Below, piece after piece: positions 55,075-55,533 of a stretch of 64,000 bases of DNA (the first letter of the stretch is position 1; every line of letters begins with the position of its first letter). Both the position numbers and the translations under genes were made by a program. Origin of the DNA: Escherichia coli (GTDB lineage Bacteria; Pseudomonadota; Gammaproteobacteria; Enterobacterales; Enterobacteriaceae); assembly GCF_030013595.1 (NCBI RefSeq), contig NZ_CP122768.1, one strand, 5' to 3'. The notes beneath the pieces were generated by a model. It did no database searches, had not been told where the DNA came from, and worked only from the letters and a program-made list of their open reading frames with translations.

Positions 55075-55201
55075 GGATATTTATCAGGATTTATCAGTTT
55101 CTAATCTATAGATATGTTAAGCACTCAGCCCGTCAGTGGTGGATACTGGCGTATGTAATAAAGGGGGGATGGCTGATTACCTCTGATAAGGGAATGTAAC
55201 T

Positions 55202-55498
55202 ATGAACGGTATAGATCCATTCAAACCAATCAGTAAGCAACTTGATGTGGTATTACCACAACTGATAAAACACGACGACCTTCTGGATAAAGTGTTGCCT
55301 TTTTATATTGCTGTTACCGCAAAATTATCAGGTAAAACTCGAGAAGAGGTTCTCAAATATAACATGCTGGCTTTAGAAACAATTTTTGGCTCAGAAAAAG
55401 CGGGAAAATCACCCAAAGAGCTGGCAGAATCTCAATTTGCTTATATGACAAATATAAGAGTATCCGAAATCTTTGATAAGCTACCAGACATTGAATAA
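55202..55498 (+). CDS. hypothetical protein (insert within the lysis cassette)
   Basis: 98 aa AT-rich ORF on the strand opposite the lysis genes, followed by a terminator. Confidence 0.5.
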   Translation: MNGIDPFKPISKQLDVVLPQLIKHDDLLDKVLPFYIAVTAKLSGKTREEVLKYNMLALETIFGSEKAGKSPKELAESQFAYMTNIRVSEIFDKLPDIE

Positions 55499-55503
55499 TT
55501 TCT

Positions 55504-55533
55504 AAGCGGCAGTAATGCCGCTTTATATTTTTT
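55504..55533 (+). terminator. intrinsic terminator after the 98-aa cargo gene
   Basis: hairpin AGCGGCAGTAATGCCGCT followed by T-rich TATATTTTTTC. Confidence 0.45.

Follow-up and report, generated by a model that had tools for sequence, protein, structure and literature searches.

A head-on gene inside a prophage lysis operon

The stretch of DNA analyzed here, 64,000 nt long and referred to as the window, carries on its − strand the late region of a lambdoid prophage, in the order Q, tRNA-Asn and tRNA-Thr, holin, a DUF1327-like open reading frame (ORF), endolysin, Rz/Rz1, cos, and Nu1. Between the endolysin and the DUF1327-like ORF, which we call gene B, lies a 98-amino-acid (98-aa) ORF on the opposite strand, which we call gene A. 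The features used in the analysis are the following (positions are those of the window).

56510-57133, − strand: Q.
56080-56235, late region: tRNA-Asn and tRNA-Thr.
55746-55961, − strand: holin, upstream member of the late lysis operon; assigned by matches to two holin PHROGs, phrog_9876 and phrog_20.
55523-55741, − strand: partner gene B, 72 aa, DUF1327-like; from the ORF list, the exact protein being named "DUF1327 domain-containing" by NCBI.
55504-55533, + strand: intrinsic terminator of the A transcript, AAGCGGCA-GTAA-TGCCGCTT and then TATATTTTTT.
55202-55498, + strand: cargo gene A, 98 aa; from the ORF list, with a match to phrog_25324.
55188-55193, + strand: Shine-Dalgarno sequence AAGGGA, 8 nt 5′ of the ATG of A, read directly from the sequence.
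55125-55184, + strand: structured 5′ leader with helices P1, P2, and P3, from alignments.
55113-55118, + strand: candidate −10-like hexamer TATGTT, from conservation; transcription would presumably start a few nucleotides before P1.
∼55100-55625: mosaic segment, made up of the putative promoter region, the leader, gene A, the terminator, and the 3′ two-thirds of gene B.
55072-55090: palindrome remnant, of which only the right half, TATCAGGAT (55082-55090), is present.
54541-55074, − strand: endolysin, downstream member of the late lysis operon; matches phrog_7 (endolysin) and is annotated by PGAP as lysozyme/rrrQ.
54088-54342, − strand: Rz1.
54041-54562, − strand: Rz.

An earlier, sequence-only reading had marked the interval 55075-55533 as an AT-rich, 98-aa ORF on the opposite strand ending in its own hairpin and T-run terminator. 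All of these elements are present, and the limits of the interval are correct: its first base follows the endolysin start codon, and its last base is that of the T-run. The GC content of gene A is 36.0%, compared with 52% for the endolysin, 56% for Rz, 47 to 56% across the lysis genes, and 52% for the whole window. The terminator hairpin (55504-55523) has 8 bp, five of which are G-C, with the T-run TATATTTTTT immediately next to it, and the stop codon of the convergent gene B abuts this terminator. An equivalent hairpin is present between the convergent genes in all members of the A family. Gene B starts 4 nt past the holin stop codon and should therefore be cotranscribed with the late operon.

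Gene A encodes a small protein under purifying selection

Gene A is a real protein-coding gene, far above what is expected of a chance ORF, and it is under purifying selection. Its product matches phrog_25324, a PHROG of unknown function, over its full length (residues 1-98 of 98; E=1.6e-60), and homologues sharing 42 to 97% identity keep a length of 97 to 100 aa. From Escherichia to Xenorhabdus and Providencia, the family alignment has 27 invariant residues and no indels despite saturated synonymous sites; where dS is unsaturated, dN/dS is 0.08 to 0.19, the other comparisons being saturated in dS. The family forms 16 clusters among 5.8 billion proteins, and when 1.84 billion representative proteins were searched with a hidden Markov model (HMM), six matched A, one of which, a 1077-aa eukaryote-like repeat protein, was considered spurious. 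All credible matches come from Enterobacterales (Escherichia, Shigella, Cronobacter, Serratia, Atlantibacter, Buttiauxella, Yersinia, Xenorhabdus, and Providencia). As sampled by these searches, the A family is tiny and confined to that order.

The protein is predicted to be soluble and to fold into four helices (residues 10-22, 25-42, 47-62, and 71-91 of an AF2 model with a pLDDT of 84.7). It is acidic (pI 5.4) and has no transmembrane segment, the maximum KD value over 19 residues being 0.78. Searches with A found no Pfam family even at E<=10, only noise in NCBIfam, and nothing in a PDB sequence search; the PADLOC defence profiles matched neither A nor B at E<=1, and Foldseek of A against AFDB50 and BFVD returned its own family or nothing. 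Thus, the searches made gave no informative structural match, defence family, or similarity to known anti-defence proteins for A. The sequence-only reading had allowed that A might turn out to be a known conserved lysis-cassette protein; A is conserved, but it is no lysis-cassette component.

Exchange at the ydfR-R junction

In phage vB_EcoM-606R7 and similar phages, S, YdfR (116 aa), and R are contiguous and the site of gene A is empty, which agrees with the earlier view of A as a gene inserted into a cassette of the DLP12/Qin type. The window and 606R7 are 87 to 100% identical outside ∼55100-55625, and identity collapses within this mosaic segment, which substitutes for ∼260 bp of the 606R7 S-YdfR-R arrangement. 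The neighbor of A had been described as YdfR-like. A gene of that description is there; it is not a resident gene of the lysis cassette, since its 3′ two-thirds lie in the imported segment. The sequence-only reading had also held that absence of the ORF from close relatives with identical flanks would count against it. Such absence is literally what the comparison gives; it is not evidence against function, because absence from relatives is what defines a moron.

The whole arrangement of the window is present in phage Evi at 94.5% identity, and the exchanged segment occurs in 62 of 5,426 complete E. coli genomes, a few copies being truncated at the 5′ end. The same ydfR-R junction is occupied by three different cargos: gene A in the window, a 90-aa head-on cargo (phrog_2411) in phage 783R2, and a 79-aa head-on cargo (phrog_21218) in the LF82 prophage Perceval. 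The latter two are unrelated to A and share with it the same promoter region. By this comparison of cargos and flanks, the ydfR-R junction is an insertion hotspot. LF82 transcriptome tables had no entry for the equivalent (Perceval) cargo gene.

Sites of the A family in late operons

At every A-family locus examined, A is antisense to the phage late operon and convergent with a small late-strand gene. At least seven late-operon sites are represented, including those given below.

S-[B][A]-R: the window and Evi.
After an Rz fragment: Cronobacter.
TMP-[B][A]-gpM: tail operon.
gpM-[B][A]-gpL: tail operon.
gpI-[B][A]-gpJ: tail operon.
Immediately upstream of holins of other families.

Furthermore, some phages that carry A relatives have unrelated endolysins (GH108 and M15). 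This distribution bears on the suggestion of the sequence-only reading that A could modulate lysis timing, and on the related possibility that its target is the holin or endolysin next to it. The gene does sit between holin and endolysin, and transcription from the opposite direction might, in principle, reduce read-through into R. However, the family occurs in tail operons, by other holins, and after Rz, A has neither a membrane segment nor a signal peptide, unrelated cargos occupy the same junction, and many close relatives lyse without A. A role in lysis timing is very improbable because the family lies mostly outside lysis cassettes and A is no membrane protein. We attribute the position of A within the lysis cassette to the insertion hotspot, because the A family and its leader occur at many other late sites.

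A structured leader behind a putative promoter

When the 130 nt 5′ of A were aligned across distant loci, conserved noncoding blocks emerged. The conserved promoter region and leader together span ∼90 nt 5′ of A, of which the leader itself accounts for ∼75 nt. Three helices make up the leader. In P1, which is invariant, UCAGCC (55125-55130) is paired with GGCUGA (55171-55176); P2 is an 8-bp hairpin nested in P1 (55131-55138 paired with 55144-55151); and P3, in which a purine tract (55163-55167) is paired with CCUCU (55180-55184), has a pseudoknot topology with P1. The window matches GATGGCTGATTACCTCTG exactly at 55168-55185, and all leader helices are present in it.

Across 45 distinct leaders, five of the eight pairs of P2 have compensatory changes, and 95.6% of cells are paired versus 29 to 47% in slid controls. 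For P3, the pattern-selected set of leaders contains one-sided changes only, and compensatory variants are found outside that set (AGAGAG/CUCUCU in leaders L027 and L029 and AUGGGG/CCCCAU in LF82). The structure is assigned to the + (cargo) strand because of its G-U pairs. An AAGGAA-type Shine-Dalgarno sequence stands at a constant distance in 87 distinct leaders. With the covariation in its favor, the leader is a candidate for a new structured RNA. The folding energy of the leader was no better than that of shuffled sequences (z=0.06), and an Rfam scan of 54800-56500 at E<=5 gave the two tRNAs and one chance miRNA match, with no leader family. A mini-ORF within the leader (AUG GCU GAU UAC CUC UGA) was considered and rejected, as it is not conserved across members.

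Upstream of P1, a TAnnnT −10-like hexamer is found at a fixed distance in 86 distinct upstream regions and is preceded by CCCTGG. A consensus sigma-70 scan 5′ of A found no promoter, and no −35 element is evident in the 86 regions; because the consensus scan finds none, we infer the cassette promoter from conservation only. Further upstream, the consensus cassette has a 15-bp palindrome, ACTG-N9-CAGGAT, as judged from the same 86 regions, and also a hairpin corresponding to an intrinsic terminator on the late-operon strand, just before the start of the next late gene. The palindrome was compared with the LexA (SOS) box, a candidate that was rejected since the spacing is CTG-N9-CAG in all 86 regions, one nucleotide short of the N10 of the LexA box. 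In the window, the palindrome has kept its right half only, the left half being replaced by the endolysin start codon (CAT, 55072-55074), and the CCCTGG box is replaced by CTATAG. Regulation in the window may differ from that of the consensus cassette because half of the palindrome is lost and CCCTGG is changed.

One leader, many cargos

Leaders were collected by matching an 18-nt block, GATGGCTGATNANCTCTG, in IMG/VR. The block is present in at least 120 contigs, and among the matches listed the full leader architecture was found in 107 of 121. The proteins encoded 3′ of the leaders comprise at least 83 distinct sequences in at least 23 unrelated sequence families, mostly 65 to 99 aa in length, and all of the cargos tested belong to PHROGs of "unknown function." Among the matches listed, 64 of 77 distinct cassettes are followed by a gene on the opposite strand, and 27 of the 77 have a small convergent ORF no more than 60 nt away. 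In a collection with one genome per species, the leader occurs in ∼35 species of Enterobacterales. It is present in 223 of 5,426 complete E. coli genomes (∼4%), never with an annotated feature, and in the named phages HK022, HK633, mEp213, mEp043, ES18, SPN3UB, and Oslo.

The flanks of the cassette are more conserved than its cargos. This, together with the 5′-truncated copies in a few E. coli genomes, could be taken to mean that A is a functionless, decaying passenger and that only a regulatory or recombination module is conserved. Such a reading is scarcely credible in view of the low dN/dS values, the invariant residues, and the absence of indels described above.

As far as the alignments and genome collections reach, the promoter-leader module common to at least 23 small-protein families is an unannotated and unexpected result. 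Searching for its sequence is a simple way to find prophage accessory genes left "hypothetical" by annotation pipelines. Gene A, taken alone, is one more uncharacterized moron.

The convergent partner gene

The small late-strand gene that faces A occurs in two forms. The first, always 72 aa in length and 32 to 61% identical to the B protein of the window, accompanies A in Cronobacter, in tail operons, and elsewhere; the second is a protein of 93 to 99 aa. Profile-profile comparison of the two families (hhalign) gave probabilities of 0.2 to 1.7%, i.e., no detectable homology, and the long partner, used as the query of a word-based search, led to a single cluster. Either form can accompany closely related A proteins.

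The predicted secondary structure of B is three strands and a C-terminal helix. We count B as a member of the DUF1327/YdfR family, with PF07041 precomputed for the Cronobacter partner. YdfR proteins are 104 to 116 aa long and have a C-terminal extension that B lacks, and the DNA of the first ∼40 codons of B is 87 to 100% identical to ydfR of related phages. On the evidence of its homologues, B is the module's own partner and not a truncated ydfR, because the 72-aa form is conserved at that length together with A in distant phages. The 72-aa "DUF1327" gene should thus be annotated as a module partner instead of a broken ydfR. Because the ∼40 N-terminal codons are nearly identical to the resident ydfR, the module may have entered by recombination inside shared DUF1327 sequence.

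In another reading, the A and B proteins bind each other directly and work as a toxin-antitoxin, addiction, or defence-antidote pair. In favor of this are the convergent small gene found at every A-family locus examined and the precedent of a Pseudomonas phage system with the same layout, Tab/anti-Tab (see below). In a model of A fused to B, however, AF2 gave no confident complex (pTM of 0.40) and lowered confidence in A; the model, built with a shallow paired alignment of 8 rows, says little about binding. Moreover, related A proteins pair with partners of either length, most cassettes with other cargos have no close partner, and DUF1327/YdfR genes also exist without A. A specific A-B protein pair is doubtful because A has two nonhomologous partner types and because a close convergent partner is found in only 27 of the 77 cassettes listed, and we consider a directly binding pair improbable.

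Comparison with known systems

In phage HK022 (NC_002166), the leader precedes gene 23, annotated as "Srb protein; moron gene product," which converges with gene 22. In phage ES18 (NC_006949), it precedes gene 25, which converges with gene 24, a DUF1327 protein like B; both ES18 genes are annotated as "possible moron; function unknown," with two terminators marked. The HK022 22/23 and ES18 24/25 pairs resemble the window in promoter and leader sequence, head-on placement in the late operon, a small cargo, a hairpin between the genes, and a small late-strand partner. The cargos are unrelated in sequence to A (gp23 of HK022, 73 aa, is of the phrog_6806 type; gp25 of ES18 has 95 aa). In addition, the HK022 and ES18 cassettes lie between tail genes and have the complete palindrome and CCCTGG, whereas the window cassette lies in the lysis cassette and has both altered.

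Elements of this kind have reportedly been recognized since the HK022/HK97 and ES18 genome papers. A literature search, to which the HK022/HK97 and ES18 genome papers were out of reach, yielded no description of a shared leader or cassette family, and a search for HK022 "Srb" found nothing.

The classical lambdoid morons are HK97 gp15, lambda bor, and lom (Juhala et al. 2000; Cumby et al. 2012; reviewed in PMC3594210). They share with the window the presence of extra DNA relative to syntenic relatives, a deviating GC content, a terminator, and a place within or beside the late genes. They also have a promoter of their own, as the window may have, conservation being what points to it there. Their products are membrane proteins or lipoproteins with roles in exclusion or virulence, whereas A is predicted to be soluble and helical, and they do not share the leader. 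Gene A agrees with a moron in the Juhala/Hendrix sense in being absent from syntenic relatives, deviant in GC content, and followed by a terminator. Morons in this sense also have a promoter and are expressed from the repressed prophage, as A may be. As a shared-leader cassette, the locus has the leader and the antisense placement and lacks the intact palindrome and CCCTGG. The kind of gene is known, namely, a moron; the shared promoter-leader cassette appears to be undescribed in the literature searched.

A further parallel is Tab of Pseudomonas phage JBD26, a protein of 83 residues with no known domain that is encoded on the opposite strand in the late operon and has its own promoter (Patel et al. 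2024, PMC10884400). The small gene beside it, cotranscribed with the late operon, encodes the antidote anti-Tab, to which Tab binds, and the target of Tab is the tape measure protein (PMC10884400). Tab/anti-Tab and A/B are alike in layout and size. The host and phage lineage are different, the Tab site lies between terminase genes, and the AF2 fusion gave no support for binding between A and B.

Proposed role of gene A

Given the above, A is probably the cargo of a self-contained, horizontally exchanged moron cassette that lies antisense in the late (lysis) operon of the prophage and would serve as an accessory factor rather than as a lysis component or timer. The earlier suggestion of a small accessory or immunity-type protein is plausible. 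On its own strand, the cassette consists of a candidate promoter region, which in the full form includes the 15-bp palindrome, a structured leader, a Shine-Dalgarno sequence, a small variable ORF, and an intrinsic terminator. Host RNA polymerase may transcribe it independently of Q and late transcription, in the lysogen or right after infection. The 5′ structure would begin at or near the start of the transcript, where it probably stabilizes the mRNA and/or tunes translation from the adjacent Shine-Dalgarno sequence. During lytic growth, Q-antiterminated late transcription running head-on could silence the cassette. Most likely, A benefits the lysogen or the phage as an autonomously expressed accessory protein. 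Our preferred model is that A is a small anti-phage effector of the exclusion type, by analogy with Tab/anti-Tab, and that late in development, transcriptional collision or antisense RNA would lift its action on its own phage, possibly with involvement of the partner protein B.

A rival reading makes A an early cargo. Here, the promoter would fire from incoming DNA ahead of the phage programme, the product would inhibit an immune system or some other function of the host as an anti-defence or host-takeover protein, and head-on late transcription would then shut the gene off. The cargos are small, acidic, diverse, and rapidly exchanged, with at least 23 families of which those assigned to PHROGs are without known function, and a host-type promoter independent of phage regulators, if there is one, combined with antisense late placement would give early-on, late-off kinetics. 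Against this, A has no similarity to known anti-defence proteins in the searches made, known anti-defence genes are usually found in early operons, and in HK022 and ES18 such genes were deposited as morons. We regard an anti-defence or host-takeover function as a serious rival to the exclusion-type model, if a somewhat unlikely one.

An extension of the exclusion-type model, which we offer tentatively as a possibility, is that swappable antisense cassettes across Enterobacterales, under one promoter/operator and a pseudoknotted riboregulatory leader, constitute a diversifying arsenal of defence effectors with late self-immunity. If true, the leader would be a new class of cis-regulatory RNA, subjecting all of these cassettes to one signal, and dozens of unrelated small proteins, many with a late-strand partner, would form a single previously undescribed system. 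E. coli and HK022 would provide a tractable system in which to ask whether the combination of a head-on defence gene and a late antidote, so far described in Pseudomonas, is general.

Other head-on genes in the window

A second cassette was sought in the window, and none was found; the leader, in particular, is absent 5′ of a 230-aa ORF at 53253. This ORF is also head-on and occupies the position of bor.

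A shared putative promoter-plus-leader and its cargos

The 98-amino acid (98-aa) ORF lying head-on in the lysis region is preceded by a segment that recurs, with unrelated cargos, well beyond the window.

Window 55105-55201: putative promoter plus leader, the leader being a conserved structured 5' RNA segment; ~95 nt; upstream of the 98-aa ORF; also in loci L030-L149 and L151-L193

This segment is common to at least 23 unrelated small-protein families and was found in more than 100 viral contigs, ~35 Enterobacterales species and 223 of 5,426 E. coli genomes. The inner hairpin of the leader covaries strongly. 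No occurrence of the segment is annotated, and Rfam holds no family for it.

Two further head-on cargos sit at the ydfR-endolysin junction, with the same promoter region as the window cassette and variant leaders.

L002 1781-2053, phage 783R2: 90 aa (phrog_2411)
L150 2606-2845, E. coli LF82 prophage Perceval: 79 aa (phrog_21218)

The LF82 gene overlaps ydfR and was left out of the annotation behind the published LF82 transcriptome.

One profile match of the 98-aa family is to a 1,077-aa eukaryote-like protein that contains four tandem repeats and whose C-terminus is LRR-like; the match covers profile positions 31 to 66 (E = 2.6e-4; motif LPAYLAVSSNTSG versus LPFYIAVTAKLSG) and is probably due to chance.

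Cassette boundaries and partner ORFs

Upstream, the consensus cassette carries a 15-bp palindrome, ACTG-N9-CAGG (remnant in the window, 55072-55090), which is centered ~45 nt ahead of the inferred start and often encloses GATC; a Dcm site, CCCTGG, comes after it. The palindrome resembles a LexA box but is 1 nucleotide too short to be one. Each cassette has at its upstream end a hairpin, GCCACCnnnnGGTGGC, of which compensatory variants occur, plus an A-run (e.g., L005 2779-2830 and L193 1946-1967); read on the late-operon strand, this is a predicted intrinsic terminator directly ahead of the next late gene's start codon. The window copy of the cassette is without it.

Many of the partner ORFs on the late strand share a conserved start, MTLEQRVEALEK, often preceded by MNRYHDK..., and diverge afterwards (loci L037, L043, L050, L058, L060, L064, L079, L094, L097 and L111). 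Some are chimeric, joining this N-terminus to the C-terminus of a partner family of 93 to 105 aa. The 5' stretch that they conserve appears to be a second homology arm used in cassette exchange.

In cargo families 1 and 5 (e.g., L049 and L125), some leader-driven proteins are 65 to 72 aa long (e.g., MSELKLNAIDF... and MGKFSITSIRD...). Their sequence pattern suggests three strands and a C-terminal helix, the same arrangement predicted for the DUF1327-like partner of the 98-aa ORF; if so, the partner's fold would occur on either strand of these modules.

Other genes in the window

Window 53253-53945, + strand: head-on 230-aa ORF, AT-rich (30 to 37% GC), between Rz and cos/Nu1
Window 56080-56235, - strand: tRNA-Thr(tgt) and tRNA-Asn(gtt), between Q and holin

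The 230-aa ORF occupies the position of lambda bor and matches phrog_13652, of unknown function, over its full length (E = 9e-107); its only PADLOC match is at noise level. Upstream of it lies an extended -10-like element, TGGCATAAT, and the shared leader is absent. Many lambdoid and Stx-type prophages likewise carry tRNA genes between Q and holin.
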